Assembly (NCBI GenBank): GCA_022865525.1
Contig: JALHSV010000264.1
Location: 1-52,111, forward strand
Source: Thermodesulfovibrionales bacterium
Lineage (GTDB): Bacteria > Nitrospirota > Thermodesulfovibrionia > Thermodesulfovibrionales > SM23-35
Direction of reading: 5' to 3'
Length of the DNA: 52,111 nucleotides
Part shown: in pieces, positions 14,343-52,111 of the stretch
Layout of the letters: the number at the start of each line of letters is the position of its first letter
Position numbering within the stretch: the stretch's first letter is position 1
Program-made: the position numbers and the translations under genes
The notes under the pieces: model-generated
What the model saw: the letters and a program-made list of their open reading frames with translations, nothing else
Told to the model about the DNA's origin: nothing
Databases searched by the model: none

Positions 14343-14344
14343 TT

Positions 14345-16657: not shown

Positions 16658-16671
16658 TTGCGAAATTAGAT

Positions 16672-16699: not shown

Positions 16700-16776
16700 A
16701 ATGATATTAGGCGTGCGCCCGCCTTGAAAATAGGCGTCGAATATAAGCATATTTTGCAGGGATGTATAATATGATG

Positions 16777-31768: not shown

Positions 31769-32464
31769 ATGACAGGCGCAGAACTAACAGATGAAGTTAG
31801 AGAGATAGTAGGCCGGCCGGGTGCTGCGGCTTCGGGTGTTATTACCGATGCCCGCGTGACCAGATGGCTTAATGATGCACAGGCGGCAATAGTAGAGGGG
31901 TGCGTAGGTCTTCATGGAATGTCCTTTAAGAATACGGACTCTCTGGATACTACCGCCGTACTCAAGTATGCGTTAGCCGATATAACCGTAGGCGATGTTT
32001 CCGTCTCGGACGCCGTATGCAGGATATACGACGTATGGTACCTGAACGGTCTTGAGACGAAAAAGCTGAACTTCCTGACTACCGACGAATTTGACGAGTT
32101 GTATCCCGACCCTACCCACAGTGATATTCCATTAACTATACCGTCTGTGTGGACGAGAAGGGGCGCTTATATAGAGATAATGCCGATAGGCGTTACCGCT
32201 TACTATGATAAGGACTTGCGATTCGACGGAGACAGGTACGCGCGTGATTTGACGACTAACGACGCTACCGTTTCGGATATTACCGGGGCCGACGAAGGTC
32301 TGATTGCTTACGGTGCATGGAAGGCGTGGGGTGCTATCGGAGGCCCGAAAGCTACCCTGGAAGAGTTGAAATGGAAGAGAAACTGGGAAGACTGGTTAGA
32401 TGACTTCCGTTCACAGAATGACGACTTGGATGAATGGGATGGTAAAATGTTCGGAGATATTTAG
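31769..32464 (+). CDS. head-tail adaptor / tail-tubular-A-like protein
   Basis: 231 aa. N-terminal LTDEVREIVGR......ITDARVTRWLNDAQAAI resembles head-tail connector families. Position is equivalent to T7 gp11. Confidence 0.4.
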   Translation: MTGAELTDEVREIVGRPGAAASGVITDARVTRWLNDAQAAIVEGCVGLHGMSFKNTDSLDTTAVLKYALADITVGDVSVSDAVCRIYDVWYLNGLETKKLNFLTTDEFDELYPDPTHSDIPLTIPSVWTRRGAYIEIMPIGVTAYYDKDLRFDGDRYARDLTTNDATVSDITGADEGLIAYGAWKAWGAIGGPKATLEELKWKRNWEDWLDDFRSQNDDLDEWDGKMFGDI

Positions 32465-32478: not shown

Positions 32479-32865
32479 ATGGTCAGTGAGAAGGTCGGGT
32501 CTTTTATAAGTAAAGATGGGTGTAAATATAGTATAGATTGTCCCTTGTTGCCTCGTAATGGCGTTCCATACTGTTGCCGTCATTGTCATAAAAGCCGTAA
32601 GGATTACGTGACAGACTCCAACAGGCATTTATGGACTGATAAGGGCGGCTTTCATTCTCCGGATAACGGGTGCAGACTTCCTCGCGAAGATATGCCCAAA
32701 GAGTGTCTGGACTATGACTGCCGCAATTATTGGTTCTTTCTGGTATCGGCGTATTTTGATGGCAAGTGGATGTCTAATAGCGGCGCTCCGTTAAAAAGTG
32801 AAAATGAAGTTATAACAGTAGTAAAGTCTGTTAATGCAACTTTGTGGATGAATAGAAATGGTTAA
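32479..32865 (+). CDS. Cys/His-rich protein (128 aa), first ORF of the sugar island
   Basis: CKYSIDCP...CCRHCH...C...C..DC. No family recognised. Confidence 0.55.
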   Translation: MVSEKVGSFISKDGCKYSIDCPLLPRNGVPYCCRHCHKSRKDYVTDSNRHLWTDKGGFHSPDNGCRLPREDMPKECLDYDCRNYWFFLVSAYFDGKWMSNSGAPLKSENEVITVVKSVNATLWMNRNG

Positions 32866-33688
32866 AATTATAGCCGAAATGAGTGCTTCTCATCAGCAGT
32901 CTTTTCAAAAGGCTCTTGCGATAGTATGGGCGGCGGCCGAAGCAGGTGCCGACGCCCTTAAGGTACAAATGTTCACACCCGACGACATGACAGTCAATAG
33001 CAACGATAAAATGTATAGGATTGGAACTGGTCAGTGGTCGGGTATGACTTTGTACGAACTCTATCAGAAGGCTTGTATGCCCTACGATTGGATTCCCGCT
33101 ATAAAAGACCATGCGGAATCACGTGGAATGGAATTTATCGCTACGGTCTATCATCCGAGGACCGTGCCGATAGCCGTGGAAATGGGTATAAAGTCTCTGA
33201 AGATTTCGTCTTTTGAAATAAATTTTGAAAAATTATTAATTAGTGTTGACAAAACAAATTTACCCGTTATAGTTTCGACAGGTTCGGCTACTGAAAAGGA
33301 AATAAGTTATGTAGTTAATCTTTTGAGAAGGAACTTAACTTTGCTGAAATGCACATCACAATATCCAGCCCCTGCGGAATCGCTTAATATCAGAACTATT
33401 CCCGACATGTGCGAACGGTGGGGAGTTCCCGTAGGTCTTTCAGACCATTCTTTAGGCATGATAGGTGCTATAAGTGCGGTATCTTCAGGTGCATCTGCAA
33501 TCGAGAAGCACATTACGATTGACGGCAAAGGTCTGGACAAAGACTTTGCTATCCTTCCCGACAGGTTCAATATGATGGTACAGCTTGTTCGCGAGACCGA
33601 AAAGGCTTTAGGTGAAGTGGAGTATGGTGGTAAGAAGACTTATCATCGTGAACTCGTAGGTGGACAAATGCAGAGGACGGTAAAATGA
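32858..33688 (+). CDS. neuB: nonulosonic acid synthase (NeuB/PseI/LegI family), short form
   Basis: IIAEMSASHQQSFQKAL..AAEAGADALKVQMF, LKISS, VIVSTG, LLKCTSQYPAP and GLSDHS match the NeuB TIM-barrel domain. 276 aa, with no room for the C-terminal SAF domain. Confidence 0.85.
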   Translation: MVKIIAEMSASHQQSFQKALAIVWAAAEAGADALKVQMFTPDDMTVNSNDKMYRIGTGQWSGMTLYELYQKACMPYDWIPAIKDHAESRGMEFIATVYHPRTVPIAVEMGIKSLKISSFEINFEKLLISVDKTNLPVIVSTGSATEKEISYVVNLLRRNLTLLKCTSQYPAPAESLNIRTIPDMCERWGVPVGLSDHSLGMIGAISAVSSGASAIEKHITIDGKGLDKDFAILPDRFNMMVQLVRETEKALGEVEYGGKKTYHRELVGGQMQRTVK

Positions 33689-33690
33689 AA
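33648..33690 (+). repeat. junction repeat (..GQMQRTVK stop/ATGA), copy 1
   Basis: The core ggacaaatgcagaggacggtaaaatgaaa is identical to 34061-34089 at 27 of 29 positions. A weaker match extends 14 nt upstream. Confidence 0.85.
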
Positions 33691-33885
33691 TGTTTTCAAT
33701 GTAATAATATTATCGAAGGAATCTACAAAAATAATATGCAGATGCCGTTTGCAGAAAAAGAAGGGGATATGTTTAGGATTCTCGTAATATTTCCGGAAAA
33801 TATTCCGTTATGTACGAAATGTAAATGTGAAATTCTTATTAAAGGTTTCGAGAAAACACTCAGTGAAACGCAGAGAATGTCTTAA
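33685..33885 (+). CDS. small zinc-ribbon protein (66 aa)
   Basis: CFQCNN...CTKCKC. ATGA coupling to neuB. Confidence 0.55.
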   Translation: MKCFQCNNIIEGIYKNNMQMPFAEKEGDMFRILVIFPENIPLCTKCKCEILIKGFEKTLSETQRMS

Positions 33886-33922
33886 ACTATTATGTATATC
33901 ACCTATTGTGCCAAGTGTGTTA

Positions 33923-34087
33923 ATGGCTAAAGAAGTAGTGCCTTTTATAGACCCGCAACCATATTTAATTGATGAGTGGCATTGGCATGGGATAGGTTAT
34001 ATGGTGCCAGAAGATTATACCAAGGGTGGTTTTAGTTGGGTTCAATGTGAACTTGTGAACGGTCAAATGCAGAGAACGGTAAAATGA
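33923..34087 (+). CDS. small protein ending ELVNGQMQRTVK (copy of the NeuB C-terminus)
   Basis: Track ORF 33827-34087. First non-overlapping ATG is at 33923 and the start is uncertain. Confidence 0.45.
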   Translation: MAKEVVPFIDPQPYLIDEWHWHGIGYMVPEDYTKGGFSWVQCELVNGQMQRTVK

Positions 34088-34089
34088 AA
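34047..34089 (+). repeat. junction repeat, copy 2
   Basis: See 33648-33690. Confidence 0.85.
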
Positions 34090-34353
34090 CGAAAGACCGG
34101 AAAATTATATAAATACGTATTTCTATCCGTATTATTTACTTCTGTTTTTGTTTTATCCTGGTATATTATCCTGGTAAGATATTCGACTTGTAACCCGCTA
34201 TTGTTGATGGTAGCTATTCTCTGTGTTCTCATTTTACCCTTATTTATTATAGCGTGTTTATGTTCGTTATATGATTATTTAATATATTTCATTAAGAATT
34301 CCAGCCGTAAGTGTCAAATAGACCGAATAGAAAGTATATTAAAAGGACGGTAA
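34084..34353 (+). CDS. small membrane protein (2 TM)
   Basis: 89 aa with hydrophobic segments VFLSVLFTSVFVLSWYIILV and LLLMVAILCVLILPLFIIACL. Confidence 0.55.
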   Translation: MKRKTGKLYKYVFLSVLFTSVFVLSWYIILVRYSTCNPLLLMVAILCVLILPLFIIACLCSLYDYLIYFIKNSSRKCQIDRIESILKGR

Positions 34354-34359
34354 AATGAA
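34344..34359 (+). repeat. junction repeat, partial copy 3 (aggacggtaaaatgaa)
   Basis: 16-nt identity with the end of copy 1. Confidence 0.7.
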
Positions 34360-34456
34360 TGGATGGATAATGTTAGGAATAGGTTTTGTTTGTGGATTAT
34401 CTACTCGATATGTATGTCGTTTTTATTGGATGCTATTTACCCATAATGTTGAATAA
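34355..34456 (+). CDS. possible 33-aa membrane peptide
   Basis: MNGWIMLGIGFVCGLSTRYVCRFYWMLFTHNVE. Short, so uncertain. Confidence 0.3.
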   Translation: MNGWIMLGIGFVCGLSTRYVCRFYWMLFTHNVE

Positions 34457-35288
34457 CAAGACAATACTTATCTCAGGCGGAAGTGGTTCTTTGGGCCACG
34501 CTCTTGTCGAGAGGATATGCACAGAGTATTCGCCTAAAAAACTATTCATCTTCTCTCGTGACGAATACAAGCAATCTCTTATGCAGAAGCAATACGACTA
34601 CGACTGCCTGAGATATTTTATAGGTGACGTAAGGGACGTAAGAAGGCTCAAGCAGGTATGCCGGGGCGTTGACATAGTAATACACGCCGCAGCACTTAAA
34701 AGGGTAGATACGCTCGAATACAATCCCACAGAGGCCATCAGGACCAACGTGGACGGCACTATGAATGTAATTGAGACTTGTATCGAATGTGACGTAAAGA
34801 GTGCTGTTTTCATATCGACGGACAAGGCTTACGCCCCCGTGAATCTCTATGGCGCTACTAAGTTGGCAGCCGAGAAGATATGGCTGGCGGCAAACTCGTT
34901 CAATAAGACCGTCTTTACATTGGTAAGGTACGGTAACGTCATAAACTCAAGAGGTTCGGTAATCGAGTTATTCCTGAAGTTGAAAGAAAAGGGTATAAAG
35001 GAATTTCCGATAACCGATAAGAATATGAGTCGCTTCTGGATAACTCTGGACGAAGCGGTTGACCTTATAATAGTAGCTCTGGAACATCGAGGCGATTCGG
35101 ATATATATATCCCGAAAGTGCCTTCGATGTTGATAACCGAAGTGGCAAGGGCGATAGACCCCGACTGTACGTTTAATGAAATAGGAATACGTCCGGGCGA
35201 GAAGTTACACGAAACCTTATGTGACGGTTACTCCTCGAATACCAACGAGGACTGGATGACGCCGGAAGAGTTACTGGAGAAATTATGA
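34446..35288 (+). CDS. pseB: UDP-GlcNAc 4,6-dehydratase (PseB/FlaA1/CapD family)
   Basis: KTILISGGSGSLGHAL, FIGDVRD, IHAAALKRV..EYNPTEAIRTNVDGTMNV and ISTDKAYAPVNLYGATKLAAEK. ATG 34446 chosen (the track starts at TTG 34386). Confidence 0.85.
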   Translation: MLNNKTILISGGSGSLGHALVERICTEYSPKKLFIFSRDEYKQSLMQKQYDYDCLRYFIGDVRDVRRLKQVCRGVDIVIHAAALKRVDTLEYNPTEAIRTNVDGTMNVIETCIECDVKSAVFISTDKAYAPVNLYGATKLAAEKIWLAANSFNKTVFTLVRYGNVINSRGSVIELFLKLKEKGIKEFPITDKNMSRFWITLDEAVDLIIVALEHRGDSDIYIPKVPSMLITEVARAIDPDCTFNEIGIRPGEKLHETLCDGYSSNTNEDWMTPEELLEKL

Positions 35289-35494
35289 AAGTTACAATAC
35301 CAACAACAATTATTGAACTTACAGATGACGAAAGGCTCATACTCGAAAAAGCGTTATGTATTGCCGAAGAGTTAGGAAACGATGCAGTGCGGAAAGAATG
35401 CGTGAGTAGCCTTATGATTCGTGCAGGTTTTGATAATGCAAGAGAAGTTGGTAAAATGAGAGATTTAGTTTCTGAATTGAGGGAGAAATTATGA
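35285..35494 (+). CDS. hypothetical protein (69 aa)
   Basis: ATGA coupling at both ends. Confidence 0.55.
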   Translation: MKVTIPTTIIELTDDERLILEKALCIAEELGNDAVRKECVSSLMIRAGFDNAREVGKMRDLVSELREKL

Positions 35495-35634
35495 AACGCG
35501 TACTTGCTCTTATTATTACAAGCCCGGTATGGCTTACGGCGGTAGTTCTGATGAGTTTTGTTTGTATTCCCGTGTGGATTGCTCTTGGTATTGTCCGATT
35601 AATAATGTATGGTTTCAATGGAGAGTGGGAATAA
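35491..35634 (+). CDS. small membrane protein (47 aa; not in the ORF track)
   Basis: MKRVLALIITSPVWLTAVVLMSFVCIPVWIALGIVRLIMYGFNGEWE. Confidence 0.45.
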   Translation: MKRVLALIITSPVWLTAVVLMSFVCIPVWIALGIVRLIMYGFNGEWE

Positions 35635-35639
35635 TTTCG

Positions 35640-36266
35640 ATGATATTTGACAGACTCGCAATAGGCACGGCTAACTGGGGCAGGGAATACAACGGGGCGA
35701 AAGTCTCCGAAGATGACCAGAAGCGTATTCTCGACTACTGTCAATGCTCAGGTATAGACATGATAGATACGGCCACGGCTTATGGTTGGGACTGGACTAA
35801 AGTTAGTTCTTACTTCAATATTATAGTGAAGGTTAAGAGTAATGATAAAGTTGATAATGTAATAAAGATGGCACATAGCCTTGAAGATTACAAAGCCATA
35901 GACCCGGTTTGTAATGGTTGTTCTATATATTCGCCTGAAGAACGCATGTATGTTTACGGTGGTTCTGTGATACAAATACCTTATTCTATATATGACAGAC
36001 GATTTGAACCTTATTTGGAATCAATGCGATATGAATGTAATAATACTATCCACGTCCGTTCTATCTTCTTACGGGGCAAAATCTTAAAGGAATTTTCACC
36101 TCAGCAGTGTATATCCTTTTGCCTGATGAATCCTAATATAGACCGGGTAATTATAGGTGCGGACTCTTACAAACAGTTCAAAGAGAACCTGCGGCCTTTC
36201 CACGATATGAACGTAGCCGAGAAGCACGATATAAACTTATTAGATTGCCGAAAATGGGAGACATAA
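35640..36266 (+). CDS. aldo/keto reductase-like protein (short)
   Basis: LAIGTANWGREY......ILDYCQCSGIDMIDTATAYG is the AKR N-terminal signature. 208 aa from ATG 35640. Confidence 0.55.
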   Translation: MIFDRLAIGTANWGREYNGAKVSEDDQKRILDYCQCSGIDMIDTATAYGWDWTKVSSYFNIIVKVKSNDKVDNVIKMAHSLEDYKAIDPVCNGCSIYSPEERMYVYGGSVIQIPYSIYDRRFEPYLESMRYECNNTIHVRSIFLRGKILKEFSPQQCISFCLMNPNIDRVIIGADSYKQFKENLRPFHDMNVAEKHDINLLDCRKWET

Positions 36267-37531
36267 TGAATTGGCTTAAAACATGCGAGTTAATACCTGA
36301 CGGCGTTCAGACGTTATCCAAGATGCCGGAGAAACACATCAACGGCGTATATCCTAAGTACATCACACACGGAAAGGGTGCTTATGTTTACGGTGACGAT
36401 GGCAAACGGTACATAGATTACCCCTGTGGGCTGGGTGCCATCCTTTTAGGTTACGCAAACGACAGGGTTAATCAGGCCGTTAAGGAACAACTTAACAGGG
36501 GTTCTATTTTTTCACTGCCTAACTATCTGGAAACAGAACTCGCCGAGCGGATAGTTGACCTTATCCCAAGCGCTGAGAGAGTGCGCTTCTTAAAAACTGG
36601 CTCTGAGGCAACGTCCGCTGCGGTAAAGATTGCCCGTGCCTATACCGGTAAGGAAGGAATAATCTGTATAGGTTATCACGGCTGGCACGACTGGTACTGT
36701 TCTACGACCTCTAAGAAGGCCGGAGTACCCGAACAGCCGGTAGTCCAGTGTAAATATAACAGTATCACCGAGATAATCGACGCCTTTGAATTTAATGAGC
36801 AGGAGGACATGACCGGTATTGCGGCGGTAATAATGGAGCCGTACATCCTTGACGAACCCAACTTCGGGTACCTGACGAAGATACGTAAACTTTGTGATAG
36901 GTACAATGCAGTTTTGATATTCGATGAAGTAGTTACGGGATTCAGGACTACCGGTTACTCTGCACAGAAGATGTTCGGGATAATGCCGGATTTGACCTGT
37001 CTGGGTAAGGCGATGGCTAATGGCCTTCCGATTTCAGTAGTATGCGGTAAAAAGGAACTGATGGACGTTCTAAGGGGCGACTGTTTCGTTTCATCTACTT
37101 TCGGCGGCGAACTGCTCTCGATAACAGCGGCACTGGAAGTCTTGAAGATTCTCGATGAAGAGAATATTATCAGCAGGATTTGGGACAACGGCAACCTGTT
37201 CAAGGAAGGGTTCAGGCAGATAGTGGATTCCTGCAAGATGAATGACCATATAGGAATAAGGGGTTATCCGCCGAGGACATTCTTCACGTTCTCATCCGAA
37301 GTACACAAGAGCCTGTTCTGGCAGGAATGCCTTAGTAAGGGCGTCCTGTTCGGTTATGCCCAGTTTATCAGTGCCTCGCACGGCAGGGACGAAATAGACC
37401 AGACCCTGCTTGCGATGAAGCATGGTGTCCAGATGGTATCGAAGTATTTCGATAATCCGCTGGCGGCATTGAGGGGCGAGGTTGCACAGGAAACATTCAG
37501 AACACCGGGATTAGAGAAGGGCAAAAAATGA
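36266..37531 (+). CDS. class-III PLP aminotransferase (glutamate-1-semialdehyde aminomutase-like)
   Basis: GKGAYVYGDDGKRYIDY, FLKTGSEATSAAVKIARAYTG, IMEP, IFDEVVTGFR and LGKAMANGLP (PLP Lys). Start is at 36266 or 36254. Confidence 0.85.
   Translation: MNWLKTCELIPDGVQTLSKMPEKHINGVYPKYITHGKGAYVYGDDGKRYIDYPCGLGAILLGYANDRVNQAVKEQLNRGSIFSLPNYLETELAERIVDLIPSAERVRFLKTGSEATSAAVKIARAYTGKEGIICIGYHGWHDWYCSTTSKKAGVPEQPVVQCKYNSITEIIDAFEFNEQEDMTGIAAVIMEPYILDEPNFGYLTKIRKLCDRYNAVLIFDEVVTGFRTTGYSAQKMFGIMPDLTCLGKAMANGLPISVVCGKKELMDVLRGDCFVSSTFGGELLSITAALEVLKILDEENIISRIWDNGNLFKEGFRQIVDSCKMNDHIGIRGYPPRTFFTFSSEVHKSLFWQECLSKGVLFGYAQFISASHGRDEIDQTLLAMKHGVQMVSKYFDNPLAALRGEVAQETFRTPGLEKGKK
37513..37531 (+). repeat. 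junction repeat agagaagggcaaaaaatga (..EKGKK stop/ATGA), copy 1
   Basis: The same 19-mer occurs at 37683-37701 and 37868-37886. Confidence 0.9.
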
Positions 37532-37701
37532 GCATAAAAGGAGAAAAAAAGAGCGAAGATAAATGTGGTGTTTGCGGTAAAGTTATAGATTGGGATTTAT
37601 GTGACCCAATAATTAGGTGTGGCGAGGGAGATGTAATATTATCTTGTGGCCACATGGGATTGGAAAGCGGAAATGCGGATGAAGAGAAGGGCAAAAAATG
37701 A
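37528..37701 (+). CDS. small zinc-ribbon protein (57 aa; not in the ORF track)
   Basis: MSIKGEKKSEDKCGVCGK...RCGEGDVILSCGH...DEEKGKK. Bracketed by junction repeats. Confidence 0.5.
   Translation: MSIKGEKKSEDKCGVCGKVIDWDLCDPIIRCGEGDVILSCGHMGLESGNADEEKGKK
37683..37701 (+). repeat. junction repeat, copy 2
   Basis: See 37513-37531. Confidence 0.9.
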
Positions 37702-37886
37702 AGCTATTAAAAAAGTCAATCGATAAATATAAATGTAAATGGATTGAGCCTTGGGAAGGCGCACCTTGGGAGTACCAAGAATGTCGTTGTCCCGAGATAT
37801 TTGATGTGTCTTGTGTTCATCAAGCAAACGCAGGCCCAGACATTGGTAAGGATTATACCTGTTTCGAAGAGAAGGGCAAAAAATGA
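37698..37886 (+). CDS. small Cys-rich protein (62 aa) ending EEKGKK
   Basis: Bracketed by junction repeats. Confidence 0.55.
   Translation: MKLLKKSIDKYKCKWIEPWEGAPWEYQECRCPEIFDVSCVHQANAGPDIGKDYTCFEEKGKK
37868..37886 (+). repeat. junction repeat, copy 3
   Basis: See 37513-37531. Confidence 0.9.
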
Positions 37887-38440
37887 AACTTGAAGCACTA
37901 ACTTTAGACCAATGCGAGCAAGTCCGTATCTGGCGTAACGCCGAGATGGAATGCTGGCGAACGCCGTTCATGCTGACTAAACAGATGCAGGATGAGTTCT
38001 ATGAAGGGTGTTGCAACAGGGAATCGCCGCATAGATACTTTGCATTAGTAAGGACGACAGACGACCCAATTCAAGGCGTAGTGCCTGAATCAGGATTTAT
38101 CGGCATGGGTGGCATCACCTATATCCAGTGGGAGAACCGTATAGGCGAGATAACGCTTATCATCAATCCTGTCGAACGCGGGGACGGCTTAGGTGAGAAG
38201 GCGGTTGACCTACTCTTAGACCATGCTTTTAATCACTTGAATTTACAGACGGTATTCGGAGAATGTTATCATTGCAACGATGCTTGGGAGTTTTGGGGAG
38301 ATATAACAGATAAATATGATAGCCCTAATACAATACAAACGCTGTTGCCGAAACGAAAATATTGGAACGGAGACTACTGGGATAGTACGTATTTCTCAAT
38401 AGACAAAGATGACTTCAACAAAATCCATAATAGTAAGTAA
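37883..38440 (+). CDS. GNAT N-acetyltransferase (PseH-like)
   Basis: LTLDQCEQVRIWRNAE at the N-terminus and ...RGDGLGEKAVDLLLDHAF.HLNLQTV in the acetyl-CoA-binding region. Confidence 0.7.
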   Translation: MKLEALTLDQCEQVRIWRNAEMECWRTPFMLTKQMQDEFYEGCCNRESPHRYFALVRTTDDPIQGVVPESGFIGMGGITYIQWENRIGEITLIINPVERGDGLGEKAVDLLLDHAFNHLNLQTVFGECYHCNDAWEFWGDITDKYDSPNTIQTLLPKRKYWNGDYWDSTYFSIDKDDFNKIHNSK

Positions 38441-38957
38441 CCGATTGGTTAATCCCGACGACGAAGCCGATATAACCGGTAAGCTCGACTTTACCGCCGA
38501 AAGGCTGAAGGTCTATGGCAGGCTGGACTATATCTTCGTACCGTTCTGGAGTTGGTACATACCGGCTGATATTTACAAGAAGTGGAACGTAGTAATATTC
38601 CACATGACCGCACTTCCGTTCGGCAGGGGCGGCAGTCCGTTACAGAACTTAATCGTAAGGGGCTTTACGAAGACGAAGATAAGCGCCTTGAAATGCACGA
38701 AAGGCATAGACGCCGGGCCGTTATACTGTCAATCACCGCTCAGTCTCGAAGGTACTGCGGACAACATATATGACCGGGCCGACGATATTATAAGAAAAGC
38801 AATGATACCATTTATCAAGGTGCAGCAGCCCGAACCGAGTCCTCAGAGGGGCAAGGTCGTTTACTTCGATAAGTGGGTATGTACGAAGAAAGACATATTA
38901 AGGTGTATTAACTCAGATTATGAATGGAAAGATACTGACAATATCCGCACATCCTGA
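38409..38957 (+). CDS. formyltransferase-family protein
   Basis: FHMTALPFGRGGSPLQNLIVRG...KCTKGIDAGPL matches the H.SLLP..RG...D.G core of Formyl_trans_N. Confidence 0.6.
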   Translation: MTSTKSIIVSNRLVNPDDEADITGKLDFTAERLKVYGRLDYIFVPFWSWYIPADIYKKWNVVIFHMTALPFGRGGSPLQNLIVRGFTKTKISALKCTKGIDAGPLYCQSPLSLEGTADNIYDRADDIIRKAMIPFIKVQQPEPSPQRGKVVYFDKWVCTKKDILRCINSDYEWKDTDNIRTS

Positions 38958-39492
38958 CGATTGGGAATTGGGCTGTGCAGGAACGATAGAGCGACTGAAG
39001 CGTGAAGGGTGTGAATGTAATCATGCCGTATTAGGCTTAGGGCGTGGCGATGAAACTGATAATAAGTTCGATTCCTTACCTTTGTTGCATTGGGTAGGGC
39101 AGGTTGAACTGCATATAGCAATTCACAGGCCCGACATCATCCTCACTCACTACGCACACGACCTGAACATAGACCATAGGATAACTTATCAGGCCGTTAT
39201 TACGGCGGCACGACCGCTTCCCGACTATTGCGTCAGGGAGATATACTCATTCGAGGTCTTGAGTAGTACCGAGTGGTCGGACATACCGTTTAGGCCGGAT
39301 ATGTTCGTAGCCTTGACTTTGGATGATATGGAAACAAAAGAAAAGATATTGAGAGACGGATATGATAGCGAGATGAGAGACATGCCTCATGCCCGAAGTT
39401 ATCAGGCAGTTGAGTCTCTTGCAATGGTCAGAGGTATGACGGTAGGCGAGAAATACGCCGAAGCGTTTAAGACCGTGAGAAGGATAATATGA
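38920..39492 (+). CDS. PIG-L/LmbE family de-N-acetylase
   Basis: ILTISAHPDDWELGCAGTI and a downstream HxDH (NIDHR). Confidence 0.8.
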   Translation: MNGKILTISAHPDDWELGCAGTIERLKREGCECNHAVLGLGRGDETDNKFDSLPLLHWVGQVELHIAIHRPDIILTHYAHDLNIDHRITYQAVITAARPLPDYCVREIYSFEVLSSTEWSDIPFRPDMFVALTLDDMETKEKILRDGYDSEMRDMPHARSYQAVESLAMVRGMTVGEKYAEAFKTVRRII

Positions 39493-39737
39493 AAGAAGAC
39501 GAAAAACAGTTTCTTCGGATGATTTATGAAAAATGTGTACCTTTTGGTAATAAAAATTATTCTGTTAGAGATGTTATAAATAACCCTAAATGCCCCATAG
39601 TAAGTTACAAGAGAGCTTGGTATGTATTGGGTAAATGGTCAAGTGCTAAAATGGGGTTATATGATTATGGCGTTACTATTGATTTAGGTTGGTTGACTGA
39701 AAAAGGGATAGATTTTGCTAAAAATAATGAAACTTGA
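39489..39737 (+). CDS. hypothetical protein (82 aa)
   Basis: ATGA coupling. Confidence 0.55.
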   Translation: MKEDEKQFLRMIYEKCVPFGNKNYSVRDVINNPKCPIVSYKRAWYVLGKWSSAKMGLYDYGVTIDLGWLTEKGIDFAKNNET

Positions 39738-40506
39738 AGAACTAACAGCCTTATACAGTCCACTGGACATCGAATACGCCCAGGTAATGAGTGGGCCTTA
39801 CGAAGACCTGTCATTCCACGACGGCGATACCAAAGTCGTAGCGGGACTGAAAGACGGCAGGATAAGTGGTTTCTGGCGTCCTGTAGTGGCTGTGGGCGAC
39901 GATAAGGACTTGAAACTACATATTGAGCGTTTGTACGATATATGCCCTAATATCTATTATATGGACTTCCTGATAGACGGCAGGTTATCGGTGATAAGCC
40001 AGTTCTTATTGGAACGGGGCCATAAGGCACGGCCTTATTTCACGCAGATAATAGATTTGACAAAGACCGAAGAAGAATTGCACGCTGATTTGAGGAAGTC
40101 ATATAAGAGTTTAGTGAATAAAGGATTTGGCGGCATTGATACTGCATTAGGTGTTCTTAGAAAATTACACAAGGACACAAGAAGTAATGAAACTTGGCAT
40201 ATACAGTCGAAGATAATCGGAATGCAACAGGCGTTTATCTCAGATGACGAAGGAAAGTCGGCATGTCTTATATATCACAATAGATATACTGCATATTATT
40301 TTAGCGGTGTCTCTGAGGATGGCGTTAATTCTCATCCCTGTTTATGGATGGCCATATTGCAAGCAAAAGCATTAGGCTGTAAGACTTTTGAAATGGGCGA
40401 GCAGGTCTTTGACGGCGACCCCAAGTTAGTAAATATATCCAAATTCAAACGTGGATTTGGAGGAAAAACCGTAACTCGAATAATATTAGAGAAGGATACT
40501 AAATGA
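39727..40506 (+). CDS. FemAB/BioF2-like acyl(aminoacyl)transferase-fold protein
   Basis: IDLTKTEEELHADLRKSYKSLVNKG and the C-terminal ISKFKRGFGG are typical of the FemAB / Acetyltransf_6 family. By eye only. Confidence 0.5.
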   Translation: MKLEELTALYSPLDIEYAQVMSGPYEDLSFHDGDTKVVAGLKDGRISGFWRPVVAVGDDKDLKLHIERLYDICPNIYYMDFLIDGRLSVISQFLLERGHKARPYFTQIIDLTKTEEELHADLRKSYKSLVNKGFGGIDTALGVLRKLHKDTRSNETWHIQSKIIGMQQAFISDDEGKSACLIYHNRYTAYYFSGVSEDGVNSHPCLWMAILQAKALGCKTFEMGEQVFDGDPKLVNISKFKRGFGGKTVTRIILEKDTK

Positions 40507-41852
40507 AGAAAATACTCATCCTGACAGCATCACCCCGCAGAGATTTACTCATTGACGAGCAGATAGCCAAGAAACTCAAAGAGCTGGGTAACGAGACCAA
40601 GATAGCCCCCTGCCTTCGAGAGGGCAGGGATACGGTATTGGAGTACCAGCCTGACGTCGTGGTAGTTCCTCCTGTACGCAATATGTATTCGAGGGACTTC
40701 TGTGAGGACATCAAGCGATTCGGTTGCGGTTTGGTTTCAAGGCATACCGAGCCGTCCTGCGACTGGCCCGACTATAAAGCGATGAACCAGAAGCAGCAGA
40801 GTGAAATATGCGGTCTTATCCAATACTACGTCGATAGTGAACTGGTCTGGTCTGAAGATGAGGCACAAATACTGAATCGCCGAGGTGCAAAGTTCAAAGC
40901 TGTTAGTGTGGGGGCCGTCGGCGTAGATAAGTACCTTAACCCGGAATATAAGAAAAGGTATAAGGACAAGGCTAAATTCAAGAAAAAGTACAAGTTCACT
41001 AATAATAAGACCATTCTTATCCAGTCGCCGTGGGGGTTTGCAGACCATTCACCCGACCTGCGAATAGAGGAGGTTGACGAGTTCGTTAAGGACAACAAAG
41101 GCCGGGACAGGCACTTGGATATGATAGAGGCACTGCACAAGGAATTGCCGGATTATAATATCATCGTAACTACCCATCCGGGCGTAGTTACGAAGCCCTA
41201 CATTCAAAGACTCGGCAAGTTGGGGATACCGCTGGATACGGTATCGACCTCGCTTGAGTTAATGCTGAACTCTGATATTCTTATCCACGCCGGTTCGACA
41301 ATGGCTATCGGGGCGCACTTCCTGAAGATGCCCGCTTTCCAGTTCGGGGACGTTAATCTGAAGGATTCTACGAACTGGTGGCACCAATCGGGCAAGATAA
41401 TGGCAGAGATGTCGTTGAACTGCAAGAACCCAGAGATGCTGGCAAAGCTTATAAAAAAGGCAGAACCGAAGTCCAATATCAATAAGGAAGCCCTGGAGAA
41501 GCTCAGGGAAGGCCGTTACGGAATAATGGACGGTAAGGCCACCGACCGTGCGGCGGAGATAATCAATAAAATCGAAGGCAAGTTCAAGTTCGCCTGGCCG
41601 AGGTCAACTCACGACTATTCTCAGTTAACTATATTACAACACCCATCCAAGGCAATAGCAGATGCTAATTGTGGTATCTGTAAAGAGGCGTTCGGTATAA
41701 TGCGCCCCGAATATAAGGAAATGATTCGAGTAAACGTAGCAAACGTAGTTAAGGAAGCAGAGTTAGTAAATAAGATAATGCTGATATTTGAGCCGGTACG
41801 AGGCACTTACTGCCCGCACTGCGGTTCAAGATTTATGCCGGTAATGCCATGA
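40503..41852 (+). CDS. GT-B-like glycosyltransferase/hydrolase (PseG- or CMP-sugar-transferase-like) with C-terminal zinc ribbon
   Basis: 449 aa. Rossmann-like MKKILILTASP.., IIVTTHPG, and SDILIHAGSTMAIGAHFLKMPAF resembling the GT28/MurG-PseG C-terminal motif. CGICK...CPHCGSRF at the C-terminus. Confidence 0.5.
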   Translation: MKKILILTASPRRDLLIDEQIAKKLKELGNETKIAPCLREGRDTVLEYQPDVVVVPPVRNMYSRDFCEDIKRFGCGLVSRHTEPSCDWPDYKAMNQKQQSEICGLIQYYVDSELVWSEDEAQILNRRGAKFKAVSVGAVGVDKYLNPEYKKRYKDKAKFKKKYKFTNNKTILIQSPWGFADHSPDLRIEEVDEFVKDNKGRDRHLDMIEALHKELPDYNIIVTTHPGVVTKPYIQRLGKLGIPLDTVSTSLELMLNSDILIHAGSTMAIGAHFLKMPAFQFGDVNLKDSTNWWHQSGKIMAEMSLNCKNPEMLAKLIKKAEPKSNINKEALEKLREGRYGIMDGKATDRAAEIINKIEGKFKFAWPRSTHDYSQLTILQHPSKAIADANCGICKEAFGIMRPEYKEMIRVNVANVVKEAELVNKIMLIFEPVRGTYCPHCGSRFMPVMP

Positions 41853-42508
41853 TTTCAGCGATAATTCAAGCAAGGTTAGGTAGTACGAGACTGCCCCGCA
41901 AGGTACTCTTAGAGATACCCAAAGGCAGTGGCGCTACCTGTCTGGACAGAGTTATCGAAGCGGTCAAGAAGAGTATGATAGACCGTATCTCGCTTACCAC
42001 ACCCGATAAGGAACTCTTCGAAATGTTATGGGGAAGGTGGCCCTTAAGGGTGCATCATTACGCCGGTAAAGAGAGGAACGTAATTGCCGAGTTCTTCAGT
42101 ATAGCGATAGAAGGTGATACTATAGTCAGGATAACCGCCGACTGCCCGATGCTGGACTCCGACCAGATAGATAAGTGCATAGACGAGTTTTTAGACGGCG
42201 ATTACGATTTAGTTTACAATACGGACGAGTCTATTACAATGGACGGCGACGGTACCGACGTTGAGGTATTTTCGTACAAGGCCCTGAGAGAGGTTTACTT
42301 GAATGCGACGGGAAACGAGAAAGAGCATGTGACTTTATGGATGAGAAGGAACTTGAAATGTAAATATGTACCTGTGACCTTTAACGGTTGCAGTTTGAAC
42401 AATATCGAAGATTACGAGCGTATTTGCAAGCTCTGGACTGAGAAGGAAGAAAGCGATAAAATATGTCAGTCCACCCAGACGGCTCCGGCACAGGCTGGAC
42501 AAATGTAG
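41849..42508 (+). CDS. acylneuraminate/SpsF-type cytidylyltransferase (CMP-nonulosonate synthetase-like)
   Basis: MISAIIQARLGSTRLPRKVL and RITADCPMLD match CTP_transf_3. Confidence 0.8.
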   Translation: MISAIIQARLGSTRLPRKVLLEIPKGSGATCLDRVIEAVKKSMIDRISLTTPDKELFEMLWGRWPLRVHHYAGKERNVIAEFFSIAIEGDTIVRITADCPMLDSDQIDKCIDEFLDGDYDLVYNTDESITMDGDGTDVEVFSYKALREVYLNATGNEKEHVTLWMRRNLKCKYVPVTFNGCSLNNIEDYERICKLWTEKEESDKICQSTQTAPAQAGQM

Positions 42509-43386
42509 AGGCGGTAGATGTTAATCAGCCGCACGGCAAGGATTACTTATACTGTCAGCACATAGCAAAGGGCGTTCGCAAGCGGATGAACGCCGAACAC
42601 GCGGCATTCGCAGACGCTACGGTAGGAGGGATTCACGTTCCCGGCGGTTGTGCGGTTCTCGGCATCGAGGACGGTACGGCCACTGTCATAGCGGACGGCA
42701 CTCTCGTAGGTCATGGTATCGTATGGGACAATACCGAAGCGTTATGGTGTTGTACCAAAGCCGCTGGCGCTTCGACTACAGGCGACTGGACAATCCTCCA
42801 GATGAATCCCAATACCCAATGGAAGGGCGGCGATGTAACGTGGGCGGGCAATCACCAGTTCGATTCGAGTGTGGACTTCTCAGATGTAGATATAACAGGA
42901 AGTCTATTAGTCGATAGCTCTGCCGACTTCTCTCACGCCTTCTTTGATGGCACAGTAATAGCCACTAATCTTGAAGTTACGGGGGCTGCAATCTTTGATG
43001 GAACCTCCAATTTTTATGATGAAATAGATTTTTCTTCTTTTAATGTTTCTGGATTAGCGGGTATATACGGCAGTTTCAAAACGCAAGATAGTGATGCCGC
43101 AGCTTTAGTTGGTGATGTTACTTATAAAGCATCATCTGATGGATTACTTATAATGTGTACTTCGGGTTCAACAAATAATAAATGGAAATTCAAACAAGCG
43201 TCGGCGGCAAATGTCGTGACAGTTATGGGACAAGGTTATTATGCGGCGGCCGGTACTATAAGAGTAGAAGTAGCAACTTTTCCTATTAAGAAAGATTATT
43301 ATTGGTGCATAAGTTTAGAAGCCGCTACTTTATCTACTTGTTATTGGATTCCTTTTGGTGATGGTTCTTGTGATAAGAATATATAA
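42463..43386 (+). CDS. tail fibre/spike-like structural protein
   Basis: 307 aa, Gly/Thr/Asp-rich with beta-rich composition. Its start lies 46 nt inside the cytidylyltransferase gene and it directly precedes the nozzle-like gene. Confidence 0.4.
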   Translation: MSVHPDGSGTGWTNVEAVDVNQPHGKDYLYCQHIAKGVRKRMNAEHAAFADATVGGIHVPGGCAVLGIEDGTATVIADGTLVGHGIVWDNTEALWCCTKAAGASTTGDWTILQMNPNTQWKGGDVTWAGNHQFDSSVDFSDVDITGSLLVDSSADFSHAFFDGTVIATNLEVTGAAIFDGTSNFYDEIDFSSFNVSGLAGIYGSFKTQDSDAAALVGDVTYKASSDGLLIMCTSGSTNNKWKFKQASAANVVTVMGQGYYAAAGTIRVEVATFPIKKDYYWCISLEAATLSTCYWIPFGDGSCDKNI

Positions 43387-45437
43387 TGGCAGATATACAA
43401 ATAATTAGCCCCGATATGGGATTAAATTCGCTTGTTCCGGCCAATGCCTTGAGTCCTAAAGAGGCGGCTAAGGGCAGCGAGAACTTCACTTACGATTACG
43501 GCCTTCTTTCGACTCCGCAGGGATTTGCTAAATTGGACTTAGCGGCTGCTCTTAACTCCGGCGATACTGTTCTGTCGGTCTTTCAGTGGACGGAATTTGA
43601 TGGTGAGACCCATTTAACGGCTGTTACTACCAAGAAGATATATGAAAACGACAGGGTAAATGCAATGTGGTCTGATAAAACTCAAAGCGGCGTTACAATG
43701 TCTTCTGATATTGTTAATCCCGTATCTTGGGCGGAAGTAGGCCATAACGATACGGCCATTTATATAGACGACGACGCTACTAAGGTGAAGGCATACCATC
43801 ATCTTATAGTCTGTGACGGCGGTCTGTCGAATATCCAGAGATGGGCCGGCAAGTGGGAAGTTGACTTCGCAGACCTCGTAGGGGCGGGCGGTTATCACGA
43901 CGGTACTCAGCACAGGGCGTTACAGGTAAGTCTATCGAAACAGAACCGCCTAATCCTTCTGAGTGCAAAGGAATACTCTACCGCTACTAAGTCATGGATA
44001 GAAAACAACCAAAGGGTTAGATGGCCGACGATAGCCAAAATAGAGACTTGGACGGGTACGGGTTCCGGATTCGCTGACCTGCTCGATACGGGCGGGTTAA
44101 ACGTATGGTCGGCCCCTCTTGGCTCTGACCACATTATATACCAGACCCGCGGAATCTGGTCATTAAATTATGTAGGCGGTACGACCGTGTTCAGTCCCGT
44201 ACCTGTCATTCCCGACCTTGGCCTTTTATCGTATCATCTGCTCACAAGTTATAATAACGTCCACTATTTCTTAGGGACGGACTACAACATTCACGCCTAT
44301 TACGGCGGTTCGGTCAAGGAGACTATCGGCGATAAGATACACAAGTATTTACAGGACGACCTTGACCCTCAGTATAAGTATAAATGCTGGATGCAAATGG
44401 GGCCGAACGGTAAGTTCTTATGGGTATTAATCGTTCCGCAAGGTGCTACGGCCATAACAAAAGCCTATCGTATGAATATACAGACTAAGGCATGGATGGT
44501 CAGGGACTACTCGTCCAAATACACTTCGGGCGGAATAACGGCGGTAACTTTGGCGGGTGCAACTTCGTATATTATAGGCGATACTTATGCTACCGCCCTG
44601 AATACAACCAGTGCTTACGACGTTTCTAATGCCGGTGATATTACTGTAAGATACGGAGACTACCTCATCGATACGAGCAGGACATTAACGAAAGACTATT
44701 CTTCCGGCGTTTGGAGTGCCGGGGGCGTTGACTACTCGTTGGCGGCGGAGGCGTTTACAGCGGACTTTACGAACAATGATATTCTAATGGTAATTGACGG
44801 CTCTAACGGTACTAATACCAGATACGGAACTCATTACTATACGGCCTATGACGTTTCCGCCAACGGGTTCTCGATTCACTGGACGGAAGATAAAACGACT
44901 AACCAATGGCACGGTGTTGCGGACACTTCCATTAGCGTTCCCGCCGATATGTCTATCGGTGGTACGGACTTTCTGCGTGCCTATTCGGCATGCTCATCCG
45001 ACCTTCCCGGCGCTACTTATAACCAGAGCCTTGAGAACGTGCAGGTAAGCGATAGAATGATAATTGCCGACGCCGCAGGCTTTGTTTATAAGGTTGACGC
45101 TACTTATAGCGACGATGACGGCAATGCTATCGTTCAGAGGCACTTAACGCCGGTGATAGACGCTGGTACTCCGGGCCAGAATAAGAGATGGCCGGGTGCG
45201 GAACTGACGGCCAAGGGTACGGCACTGACCGTTTCGTACAGGACGGCCAGCTTCGATACCTCCGATACCGGCTGGACGGATTACACCCAAGCCCTAACAA
45301 GTGAATATATAAACTATGATTTCTTTATAAACGATACGTCTAAGAAGATTCAGTGGATGATAAGTGATTTTTCAGGTGCGGGTATGCAGATAAGTGATTT
45401 CGTACTTAAAGAGCCTTTAATGCTGGAGAGCAGATGA
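43386..45437 (+). CDS. tail tubular protein B / nozzle-like protein
   Basis: 683 aa. The N-terminus ...SPDMGLNSLVPANALSPKEAAKGSENFTYDYGLLSTPQGF resembles the T7 gp12-type start. Also assigned by position. Confidence 0.45.
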   Translation: MADIQIISPDMGLNSLVPANALSPKEAAKGSENFTYDYGLLSTPQGFAKLDLAAALNSGDTVLSVFQWTEFDGETHLTAVTTKKIYENDRVNAMWSDKTQSGVTMSSDIVNPVSWAEVGHNDTAIYIDDDATKVKAYHHLIVCDGGLSNIQRWAGKWEVDFADLVGAGGYHDGTQHRALQVSLSKQNRLILLSAKEYSTATKSWIENNQRVRWPTIAKIETWTGTGSGFADLLDTGGLNVWSAPLGSDHIIYQTRGIWSLNYVGGTTVFSPVPVIPDLGLLSYHLLTSYNNVHYFLGTDYNIHAYYGGSVKETIGDKIHKYLQDDLDPQYKYKCWMQMGPNGKFLWVLIVPQGATAITKAYRMNIQTKAWMVRDYSSKYTSGGITAVTLAGATSYIIGDTYATALNTTSAYDVSNAGDITVRYGDYLIDTSRTLTKDYSSGVWSAGGVDYSLAAEAFTADFTNNDILMVIDGSNGTNTRYGTHYYTAYDVSANGFSIHWTEDKTTNQWHGVADTSISVPADMSIGGTDFLRAYSACSSDLPGATYNQSLENVQVSDRMIIADAAGFVYKVDATYSDDDGNAIVQRHLTPVIDAGTPGQNKRWPGAELTAKGTALTVSYRTASFDTSDTGWTDYTQALTSEYINYDFFINDTSKKIQWMISDFSGAGMQISDFVLKEPLMLESR

Positions 45438-51949: not shown

Positions 51950-52093
51950 ATGAAACACAAAATAATGCAGAGGATATTCTGGTATCTCGCCCGAAAATTG
52001 GAATATGGCGTTGTACTAAAAGTAGGGAAACACTTTCATTACACCGAGATTAAAGAATATATGCCGGATACGATGATTGTATATTTTGGATAG
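51950..52093 (+). CDS. early small protein (47 aa)
   Basis: ATG at 51950 preceded by AAGGGGAAAGAA. The same GGGGAAAGAAATGAA context recurs at 123-137. Confidence 0.55.
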   Translation: MKHKIMQRIFWYLARKLEYGVVLKVGKHFHYTEIKEYMPDTMIVYFG

Positions 52094-52111
52094 GGGAAAG
52101 AAATGAATGAA
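51971..52111. repeat. terminal overlap copy 2 (identical to 1-141)
   Basis: Direct comparison with bases 1-141. Confidence 0.95.

Follow-up and report, generated by a model that had tools for sequence, protein, structure and literature searches.

A predicted nonulosonic acid pathway in the structural gene module of a tailed-phage lineage

Nonulosonic acids (NulOs) such as sialic, pseudaminic (Pse) and legionaminic (Leg) acid are surface sugars of animals and bacteria that govern recognition, charge and the evasion of immune systems and phages. The closest described biosynthetic system to the one reported here is the bacterial CMP-pseudaminic acid pathway PseB-PseC-PseH-PseG-PseI-PseF of Campylobacter jejuni and Helicobacter pylori. 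We analyzed a stretch of 52,111 nucleotides (contig JALHSV010000264.1, called the window over its full length) in which positions 32479-42508 hold an island of genes predicted to make and transfer a NulO. The island shares with the C. jejuni and H. pylori pathway a PseB-type dehydratase, a GNAT acyltransferase, a PseI/NeuB-type synthase and a cytidylyltransferase, and its profile scores favor Pse over Neu/Leg models. In contrast to that pathway it is phage-encoded, lacks a DegT-type PseC and a PseG, contains a class-III aminotransferase, and has an SpsF/KdsB-like enzyme instead of PseF. Furthermore, its synthase has no SAF domain, its dehydratase is about 55 residues short at the C-terminus, and genes for an aldo/keto reductase (AKR), a FemX-like protein, a PIG-L deacetylase and a formyltransferase are added.

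Viral glycosylation has been described in two other settings that bear comparison. In mycobacteriophages, Freeman et al. (Cell Host Microbe, 2023) reportedly found that glycosyltransferase genes accompany structural genes and that capsid and tail proteins bear glycans; these phages are said to draw on the sugar-nucleotide pools of the host. To our knowledge, glycosylating mycobacteriophages encode no multi-step sugar biosynthesis and no NulO genes. The transferase of the island is accompanied, unlike theirs, by about 10 kb of biosynthetic genes, and glycosylation of its virions is a prediction. Among giant viruses, Mimivirus has viosamine and bacillosamine pathways, and a CMP-Kdo pathway is predicted in CroV and Fadolivirus; the predicted route to this ulosonic acid in CroV includes a NeuA-like cytidylyltransferase (PMC9614988). 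Like the island, these are bacterial-like multi-enzyme pathways encoded by a virus, and they end in a rare sugar in activated form for known or presumed use on the virion (PMC9614988). The giant viruses have eukaryotic hosts and genomes of 0.6-1.5 Mb, whereas the island occupies 19% of the genome of a 52-kb tailed phage. As to acids of this kind, a 2022 review of giant-virus glycans names only the predicted Kdo pathway and makes no mention of nonulosonic acids (PMC9614988). We found no description of a phage- or virus-encoded NulO pathway in the open-access full-text literature, an absence that is not proof.

Our preferred reading, on which we are evenly divided when it is taken as a whole, is that the island is a late-expressed phage module that makes and uses a NulO, with a virion protein as the most likely acceptor. 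Its parts differ in strength. That the island makes a nonulosonic acid is very probable, and a Pse-type sugar is slightly favored. We lean narrowly against the island being sufficient without host enzymes, and our confidence that the acceptor is a virion protein likewise falls just short of even.

The window is a complete phage genome with an exact 141-bp direct repeat at its ends (1-141 and 51971-52111), which indicates that the assembly is circularly closed or else that the genome, of about 51,970 bp, is complete with terminal redundancy. Profile searches identified the small and large terminase subunits, the portal, the major capsid protein (29608-30645), a virion structural protein and an adaptor of the SU10 type. 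An identical contig is deposited at NCBI within a Thermodesulfovibrionales metagenome-assembled genome (MAG), where MUO31_06895 corresponds to window positions 40503-41852; its placing in a bacterial MAG is almost certainly a binning error. Related contigs are labeled Planctomycetes or plain 'bacterium'. MAG labels such as Thermodesulfovibrionales and Planctomycetes are unreliable for phage contigs and are not evidence of the host. Among 50,697 GenBank phage records, megablast with the island and tblastn with the capsid protein or the glycosyltransferase gave no match. With the synthase these phage records gave two weak matches, and with PseB six, which we judged, unchecked, to be mostly host-derived or unannotated records.

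The main features of the island and its boundaries are given below; core genes are those kept across eight fully compared related loci. All ten enzyme open reading frames (ORFs) that a first-pass annotation had listed on the + strand are present at their positions.

31769-32464, + strand: SU10-type head-to-tail adaptor, upstream boundary (PF24175, 38.6 bits); the island lies 3' of the adaptor in every related locus
32858-33688, + strand: NeuB/PseI-type nonulosonic acid synthase, 276 residues (PF03102, 220 bits); core gene in 8 of 8 compared loci
34446-35288, + strand: PseB/FlaA1-type UDP-GlcNAc 4,6-dehydratase (inverting type), about 280 residues (PF02719 Polysacc_synt_2, 292 bits); core gene
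35640-36266, + strand: short aldo/keto-reductase-family protein, about 208 residues (Pfam AKR, 29.6 bits, N-terminus only); core gene in 7 of 8 loci
36266-37531, + strand: class-III pyridoxal-phosphate-dependent aminotransferase, glutamate-1-semialdehyde aminomutase-like (PF00202, 194 bits; PRK06209, 321 bits); core gene
37883-38440, + strand: GNAT N-acyltransferase, candidate for a PseH-like step (PF13302, 47 bits; PF00583, 31 bits; TIGR03585 PseH, 19.5 bits, cut-off 93); core gene
38409-38957, + strand: formyltransferase-like protein, 182 residues (PF00551, 20 bits, under the cut-off; TIGR00460 fmt, 28 bits); accessory
38920-39492, + strand: PIG-L/LmbE-family de-N-acetylase (PF02585, 50 bits; AHPDD motif); accessory
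39727-40506, + strand: FemABX-fold protein, probable aminoacyl-tRNA-dependent N-aminoacyl transferase (TIGR04421, 39.5 bits, cut-off 250); core gene
40503-41852, + strand: enzyme of glycosyltransferase fold B (GT-B), 449 residues, with a C-terminal four-cysteine zinc ribbon (NF046086, BFO_1060 family); core gene
41849-42508, + strand: SpsF/KdsB/NeuA-superfamily cytidylyltransferase, predicted CMP-activation step (PF02348 CTP_transf_3, 58 bits); core gene
42463-45437, + strand: two virion/tail genes of 307 and 683 residues, downstream boundary; the 683-residue protein matches phrog_3287, virion structural protein; in the distant relative L114 both genes come straight after the adaptor

The island of about 10 kb is wholly on the + strand between the adaptor and the two tail-side genes, with a GC content of 0.437 compared with 0.454 for the genome. 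Only 14 nt separate it from the adaptor, and the stop of its last gene, encoding the cytidylyltransferase, overlaps the first tail gene by 46 nt. From the adaptor through the tail genes 13 of 18 junctions overlap by 1-46 nt, so that the earlier description of the genes as mostly translationally coupled is fair. A scan found promoter-like and terminator-like sites in the island no more often than in shuffled sequence. Because of the overlapping junctions, the short gap and the lack of promoter or terminator enrichment, we regard the island as part of the late structural operon rather than as a transcription unit of its own.

To assign families, the island ORFs were searched with Pfam and NCBIfam profiles, using the NCBI cut-offs for equivalog models. 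The synthase scored 267 bits with TIGR03586 (PseI, cut-off 340) against 190 bits with NeuB_NnaB, over model positions 3-267 of 327. It contains the LSDHS and EKH metal motifs and lacks the C-terminal SAF domain, which explains in part why its PseI score stays under the cut-off. The dehydratase reached 379.6 bits with TIGR03589 (PseB, cut-off 407.75) against 230 for FnlA and 56 for LegB, over model positions 1-269 of 324; it falls just under the cut-off because of the missing C-terminal residues, and the GGSGSLG, STDKA and YGATK motifs are present. For the cytidylyltransferase the best NCBIfam models were of the KdsB type (37-44 bits), and no match to PseF (TIGR03584) was obtained in the NCBIfam scan. 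SpsF is the putative cytidylyltransferase of the Bacillus subtilis Leg pathway, and SpsF-type enzymes serve NulO pathways there; the island enzyme would be functionally analogous. The synthase, dehydratase and cytidylyltransferase each scored best in the expected family, which speaks against assigning these key enzymes to unrelated families. Motifs for nucleotide binding and catalysis can be recognized in the sequences of the dehydratase, synthase, aminotransferase, deacetylase and cytidylyltransferase.

The remaining small-molecule enzymes are assigned with varying firmness. A profile built from seven members of the AKR family of the island matched AKR structures along the whole length (1ynp, E = 4.5e-8), the Tyr of the D-x-A-x-x-Y motif is invariant, and the gene nearly always adjoins that of the class-III aminotransferase; the protein is a genuine, if short, aldo/keto reductase. 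In the aminotransferase the GK motif with the Schiff-base Lys and the DE motif are invariant. The acyltransferase had been called a PseH-like GNAT. Its PF13302 score sustains the GNAT part; its PseH score stays far below the cut-off of that model, and it is the candidate for a PseH-like step. The accessory formyltransferase-like protein has weak scores, yet its HxxxLP...G and D motifs are present, and its gene occurs in 3 of 8 compared relatives. The PIG-L gene occurs in 2 of 8; in L002 it is relocated.

The GT-B enzyme matched NF046086 (BFO_1060) with 94.4 bits (cut-off 200) over model positions 2-363 of 365 and TIGR04396 with 72.4 bits (cut-off 125); no PseG or NeuC model of NCBIfam matched. 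BFO_1060 and Tanf_01245 of Tannerella forsythia are genetically implicated transferases of Pse or Leg derivatives, about 445 residues long with a TagB-like GT-B domain, and carry the sialyl-type motifs HP and D/E-D/E-G, of which HP is typical of CMP-sugar transferases (PMC5420450). The island enzyme is like them in size, GT-B/TagB-like fold, HP motif and neighboring NulO genes (PMC5420450). It differs in scoring under the 200-bit cut-off, in the D/E-D/E-G motif, to which D119-E120-A, without the G, comes nearest, and in the extra four-cysteine zinc ribbon. The Tannerella acceptor is a lipid-linked oligosaccharide (PMC5420450).

An AlphaFold2 model of the GT-B enzyme, built with 39 homologues, had a mean pLDDT (predicted local distance difference test) of 86.5 and showed a GT-B fold followed by the four-cysteine ribbon. 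H225-P226, H262xGS and the four Cys are invariant in the 39 sequences. In a Foldseek search the nearest structures were UDP-GlcNAc 2-epimerases (E = 2e-10), followed by TagF/TarL (E = 1e-8), and no PseG structure appeared among the top 50 fold matches. The TagF/TarL polymerases use CDP-linked donors (CDP-alcohols). The GT-B profile compared with PDB sequences gave only TagF (E = 0.015). The enzyme is a probable CMP-nonulosonate-dependent transferase. The first-pass annotation had described it as PseG/transferase-like and had counted nucleotide removal among the steps covered by the island. The transferase likeness is sustained by the match over the full BFO_1060 model; neither the PseG likeness nor the nucleotide-removal step is.

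For the FemX-like protein the fold was resolved by structure comparison. Pfam FemAB matches of the island protein are weak, PF02388 was matched, weakly, by 4 of 37 family members, and the family profile had no match among PDB sequences. The AlphaFold2 model (pLDDT 91.3) has the tandem-GNAT FemX fold, which it shares with FemX/FemA, the MprF synthase domain and Sba18/Sbb17. Apart from one uncharacterized protein, the top 25 PDB matches in Foldseek were aminoacyl-tRNA-dependent transferases (Sba18/Sbb17, FemX/FemA, MprF/aaPGS), with E-values from 3.7e-9 to 2e-6, template-modelling (TM) scores of 0.53-0.67 and sequence identities of 12-16%. The FemAB-like label given earlier was thus correct as to fold. 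Sba18/Sbb17 aminoacylate the amino-sugar core of a streptothricin-type antibiotic, which is analogous to N-aminoacylating a diamino sugar, and bacterial glycans are known in which Pse and Leg bear N-acyl groups derived from amino acids. Since the FemX-like gene is core to the lineage, the product of the island is plausibly an N-aminoacylated sugar.

The island lies between adaptor and tail genes in 20 related contigs, namely the eight fully compared loci (L001, L002 and L009-L014, of which L010 and L011 are near-identical and come from one contig) and 12 further IMG/VR loci with the same arrangement, found by a capsid-profile scan. A single-protein GT-B scan of IMG/VR gave no match; it was the profile-based capsid scan that found these 12 loci. 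A search with the synthase led to two IMG/VR contigs (45 and 48 kb) that carry the island at the identical position. Another five long contigs, among them a Hainich groundwater assembly, came from JGI, NCBI and ENA and show the order capsid, 238-residue protein, 96-residue protein, adaptor, island and tail genes. The island was present in every relative with a capsid identity of at least 53% whose contig reaches past the adaptor. The core over the eight loci consists of synthase, PseB, AKR, class-III aminotransferase, GNAT, FemX-like protein, GT-B enzyme and cytidylyltransferase, and the accessory genes encode the formyltransferase-like protein, PIG-L, an AAA_33 kinase, a protein of about 219 residues, and HAD and APH proteins. 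The recurrence of the same gene set in the same position in 20 related contigs is far beyond chance. The earlier view of the island as phage-borne and unusual is supported; the terminase, portal, capsid and adaptor genes and the terminal repeat mark the window as phage.

Compared with the closest relatives, L001 and L002, identity to the window is 51-72% for island proteins, 55% for the adaptor, 67% for the portal and 78-80% for the capsid protein. As the divergence of the island resembles that of adaptor and portal, it evolves like a core gene block and not like a recent pickup. GT-B homologues number at least 177, of which the 119 other proteins listed are at least 44% identical over nearly the full length, and FemX-like homologues at least 275; most members of both sets come from further metagenomic contigs, many of them as long as a phage genome (about 40-70 kb). 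The metagenomes that hold the lineage are environmental, aquatic and subsurface; the named sources are groundwater and marine sediment.

Four more distant relatives (capsid 37-45% identical) keep a GT-B orthologue with the zinc ribbon (hidden Markov model E-values from 1e-54 to 1e-68):

L113, 8680-9603: GT-B orthologue
L114, 10628-11920: GT-B orthologue
L115, 11671-12966: GT-B orthologue
L116, 8347-9681: GT-B orthologue

No NulO biosynthesis gene was found in the fetched DNA of these four, whose contigs are short (9.6-24 kb) and whose genes for it could lie elsewhere. In the loci where the adaptor was fetched, the GT-B gene sits between the post-capsid gene and the adaptor. In L114 and L116 adaptor and tail genes are adjacent, and in L114 the adaptor, a 262-residue protein and a 539-residue tail protein are directly contiguous. 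A glycosyltransferase gene inside the virion structural module is therefore common to this lineage and its distant relatives.

The first-pass annotation had called the pathway apparently complete. This is not supported, since no DegT/PseC-type aminotransferase and no PseG/NeuC-type hydrolase turned up in the island, the window or 18 related loci. The NCBIfam scans of island ORFs gave no match to DegT/PseC models and, at E <= 0.01, none to PseG or NeuC models, and tblastn with two cellular queries, one DegT and one PseG-like, found nothing in the whole window or the 18 loci. The DegT query came from an alphaproteobacterial MAG (L067) and was validated against ArnB and PseC structures, and the PseG-like one, which had no solved-structure match, was recognized only by its position and N-terminal motif. 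The only aminotransferase in the island is of class III, and as the only candidate present it would be the C4 aminotransferase.

The bacterial relatives of this aminotransferase were examined in 80 loci (L015-L094) with homologues of 36-44% identity. Next to the aminotransferase gene an SpsF-type cytidylyltransferase was found in 67 of the 80 loci and a short NeuB in 63, with PseB in only three. A recurrent cassette, seen in Melioribacter sp. (L019, 8109-13499), Hymenobacter setariae (L063, 6945-14113) and more than 60 other bacterial loci from Ignavibacteria, Bacteroidota and others, has the order cytidylyltransferase, (split transketolase), class-III aminotransferase, PtmA-like short-chain dehydrogenase/reductase (SDR), KdsC/KDN-9-P-type phosphatase and SAF-less NeuB. 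It thus shares aminotransferase, SpsF-type cytidylyltransferase and short NeuB with the island, but uses an SDR and a phosphatase and usually has no PseB. The cassette may lead to an amino-ulosonic acid along a path of its own, unrelated to those for Pse and Leg, and its product appears to be uncharacterized in the literature that we found.

In loci that do have PseB, such as L067, it is accompanied by both a DegT aminotransferase and a PseG-like protein. The published O-antigen locus of Legionella pneumophila (Sg6) likewise combines PseG, DegT, a class-III aminotransferase and a cytidylyltransferase, and adds an aryl-alcohol-dehydrogenase-like (AKR) gene, which it has in common with the island. 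In cells the class-III aminotransferase seems to belong, with its AKR or SDR partner, to a separate module or else to act in tailoring. Because the cellular homologues coexist with DegT and PseG, the phage aminotransferase may be a tailoring enzyme too and the pathway host-dependent. Either the class-III aminotransferase of the phage took over C4 amination, or the phage relies on host PseC and PseG. Outside the island, a calcineurin-like metallophosphoesterase is encoded at window positions 1465-2190; members of this superfamily such as LpxH cleave UDP-sugar pyrophosphate bonds, and as the missing nucleotide-removal enzyme it would be a long shot.

In the preferred reading, a PseB-type enzyme, whose family assignment is well supported, would turn UDP-GlcNAc into a 4-keto-6-deoxy sugar. 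The amino group would presumably be added by the class-III aminotransferase, which we assign to this step because it is the sole transaminase present. The GNAT and the FemX-like enzyme would attach acyl groups to the amines, the latter probably an amino acid from aminoacyl-tRNA, as its fold suggests. Further variation of the N-substituents in this phage may come from the PIG-L and formyltransferase-like proteins, and the nucleotide would be removed by a host PseG or a non-homologous phage protein. The SAF-less synthase, by its PseI-type family, would condense the hexose with phosphoenolpyruvate (PEP), the SpsF/KdsB-type enzyme would form the CMP-sugar, and the zinc-ribbon GT-B enzyme would, by its likeness to BFO_1060, move the sugar to the acceptor. 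The particles would then be coated with a sialic-acid-like sugar. A virion protein is the most likely acceptor because the module sits between adaptor and tail genes and because the GT-B gene by itself stays in the head modules of the distant relatives. The most detailed version, in which a widespread and uncultured SU10-like podophage lineage of groundwater and sediment coats its own virions with a self-made NulO, using a class-III aminotransferase for PseC, no PseG homologue, FemX-like N-aminoacylation and a zinc-ribbon GT-B enzyme that acts on head or tail proteins, is doubtful as a whole.

Several points weigh against the preferred reading. PseC and PseG were missing from both the profile scans and the tblastn searches described above, and all equivalog scores (PseB, PseI, PseH and BFO_1060) were under the NCBI cut-offs. 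The cellular class-III aminotransferase, AKR-like gene and SpsF-type cytidylyltransferase coexist with DegT and PseG and also occur without PseB. The nearest structures to the GT-B enzyme include UDP-GlcNAc 2-epimerases, which have the fold of the hydrolyzing NeuC/LegG enzymes, so that a role as nucleotide-sugar hydrolase keeps some probability. Assignment of the GT-B enzyme by family likeness may fail, because the TagB-like SpsB of B. subtilis proved dispensable for Leg transfer. Product, donor and acceptor are all predictions, and it is gene position that points to a virion acceptor. Furthermore, the distant relatives are short contigs and may carry biosynthetic genes elsewhere in their genomes.

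Among the alternatives, remodeling of the host surface is unlikely on balance, if worth serious weighing. Here the GT-B enzyme would add NulO to lipopolysaccharide, capsule, S-layer, flagellin or pilin and so block superinfection or keep progeny from sticking to debris. It fits this view that the closest characterized family acts on a lipid-linked O-glycan for Tannerella surface proteins (PMC5420450), that homologues of the module in cells belong to loci for O-antigen and surface polysaccharides, and that Acinetobacter prophages are reported to encode modification of surface NulOs. However, the island is within the late structural operon rather than in an early or moron position, the GT-B gene by itself is kept in the head module of distant relatives, and late expression would leave little time for rebuilding a surface before lysis. 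No integrase or lysogeny gene was found among the proteins profiled, which weakly disfavors a role in lysogenic conversion. Since the island is lineage-wide and embedded in a structural operon, we favor a glycan of the phage itself over reprogramming of the host surface. It is rather improbable that the island is an incomplete pathway that boosts or redirects Pse or Leg synthesis of the host through host PseC and PseG, with the class-III aminotransferase, AKR, FemX-like protein, PIG-L and formyltransferase only tailoring the product. The absence of PseC and PseG from every phage locus examined agrees with this view, as do the bacterial aminotransferase, AKR and SpsF-type cytidylyltransferase that coexist with DegT and PseG; yet it would be odd to keep PseB, GNAT, synthase and cytidylyltransferase in 20 diverged genomes and to borrow two middle steps.

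The PseG gap would be closed if the GT-B enzyme were itself the missing nucleotide-sugar hydrolase, a PseG/NeuC analogue, with transfer left to the protein of about 219 residues of some relatives or to a host enzyme. The epimerase-fold enzymes at the top of the Foldseek list (E = 2e-10) and the extra conserved protein nearby in L001, L002, L009 and L012 agree with this. We consider it improbable, because the profiles place the enzyme in the BFO_1060/TIGR04396 family without a PseG/NeuC match, TagF/TarL are structurally nearly as close, the HP motif is invariant, the protein of about 219 residues is absent from the window, L010, L013 and L014, and the distant relatives keep the GT-B gene with no biosynthetic gene nearby. 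An artefact, in which bacterial DNA was misassembled onto a phage contig or the contig is truly bacterial, might be suspected from the deposition within a Thermodesulfovibrionales MAG; its probability is practically negligible. Against it stand 20 independent contigs, of different samples and sources, in which identical structural genes enclose the island, and the 141-bp terminal repeat, by which the 52-kb genome is closed. GC differs little, and through overlapping junctions coding runs on from the island into its structural neighbors. The comparison with the related contigs led us to reject misassembly.

Several genes in and near the island vary over the lineage. An AAA_33 (P-loop kinase) gene lies directly 5' of the GT-B gene in many relatives (L012 9530-9997, L013 9533-9988, L014 9531-9989), with none in the window; this suggests that part of the lineage couples transfer to a phosphorylation step. 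The protein of about 219 residues (219-241) lies beside the GT-B or cytidylyltransferase gene (L001 18748-19311, L002 16574-17149, L009 9192-9851, L012 8801-9526) and may be a second transferase or the missing hydrolase. Upstream, L002 has four tandem diverged paralogues (5963-8567) of the 238-residue post-capsid protein (window 30684-31400), which is a candidate decoration protein or glycan acceptor. Pfam gave no match for the 238-residue protein, the protein of about 219 residues, the GT-B orthologue of L114 or the Cys-rich protein p128 listed below. Among the tail genes of L013 (15361-16725) are an S-adenosylmethionine decarboxylase-like gene (AdoMet_dc) and a DUF3326 gene, which may serve polyamine-related auxiliary metabolism.

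The small ORFs of the island are the following.

32479-32865, + strand: p128, Cys-rich protein of 128 residues, first gene after the adaptor; no family match, kept in most related loci
33685-34353, + strand: window-specific small ORFs 33685-33885, 33827-34087 and 34084-34353; no family matches, not kept in relatives
35285-35494, + strand: window-specific small ORF, 69 residues; no matches, not kept in relatives
37528-37886, + strand: small ORFs (about 55 and 62 residues) between aminotransferase and GNAT; the 62-residue ORF (37698-37886) kept only in L002
39489-39737, + strand: window-specific small ORF, 82 residues; no matches, not kept in relatives

In L010/L011 (10001-12337) a p128-like Cys-rich segment, an AAA_33 kinase and the GT-B enzyme are fused in one protein of 778 residues, and p128 is 44% identical over 64 residues (E = 2.5e-10) to this N-terminal segment. 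The fusion of the segment to the GT-B enzyme ties p128 functionally to the transferase. The product of ORF 34084-34353 is hydrophobic and membrane-like. The last 45 nt or so of the synthase gene, including its ATGA stop/start junction, are repeated at the 3' end of ORF 33827-34087 (33640-33688 and 34040-34087), and the last 19 nt of the aminotransferase gene with its ATGA junction are repeated at the 3' end of ORF 37698-37886 (37513-37531 and 37868-37886). The pattern suggests that recombination placed small genes at translational-coupling junctions and left those junctions intact.

Elsewhere in the window, the strand switches only at 13000-17000, where several short minus-strand ORFs, a change of sign in GC skew and a GC content of 0.37-0.41 are found; this is probably a regulatory or origin region separating early and late gene blocks. 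Two DNA methyltransferase genes lie at 9873-10484 and 10775-11932 (phrog_757; N6_N4_Mtase). An HNH endonuclease gene (17105-17707) is immediately 5' of that of the small terminase subunit (17742-18209). Between terminase and portal genes, 22734-23543 encodes a protein with a concanavalin-A-like lectin/glucanase domain (Laminin_G_3, 75 bits), which may be a carbohydrate-binding virion protein. A tRNA scan with ARAGORN gave one tRNA-like element (4180-4265) of undetermined anticodon, probably spurious and no clue to the host. A role of the island in DNA hypermodification was set aside, as it lies in the structural module and no hydroxymethylase or TET-type gene was found among the scanned proteins, which were part of the ORFs.

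Viral NulO genes are not unique to this lineage, because NeuB-type genes occur sporadically in other viral contigs. An unrelated 155-kb viral contig (L004, IMGVR_UViG_3300027792_000307) has a different ulosonic-acid-type cluster at 5758-14070, with NeuB, a CTP_transf_3 cytidylyltransferase, two SDR epimerase/dehydratases, a class-IV aminotransferase, a HIT protein, and radical-SAM and SPASM proteins.

If the most detailed version given above is true, the island would be the first NulO pathway encoded by a phage, and its particles would be the first whose NulO decoration is made by viral enzymes. If the island makes and transfers such a sugar, virus-encoded glycosylation would reach beyond giant viruses into ordinary phages, with a rare sugar of their own making where mycobacteriophages are said to borrow from the host. 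The finding raises the question of how a Pse-type pathway runs without PseC and PseG, and it draws attention to the conserved bacterial cassette of cytidylyltransferase, class-III aminotransferase, SDR, phosphatase and NeuB. The SAF-less synthase, the short PseB and a possible tRNA-dependent sugar aminoacylase would be compact variants for chemo-enzymatic NulO synthesis. For the phage itself, a negatively charged, sialic-acid-like coat might serve virion stability, avoid adsorption to particles and non-hosts, or evade lectin-like defenses.

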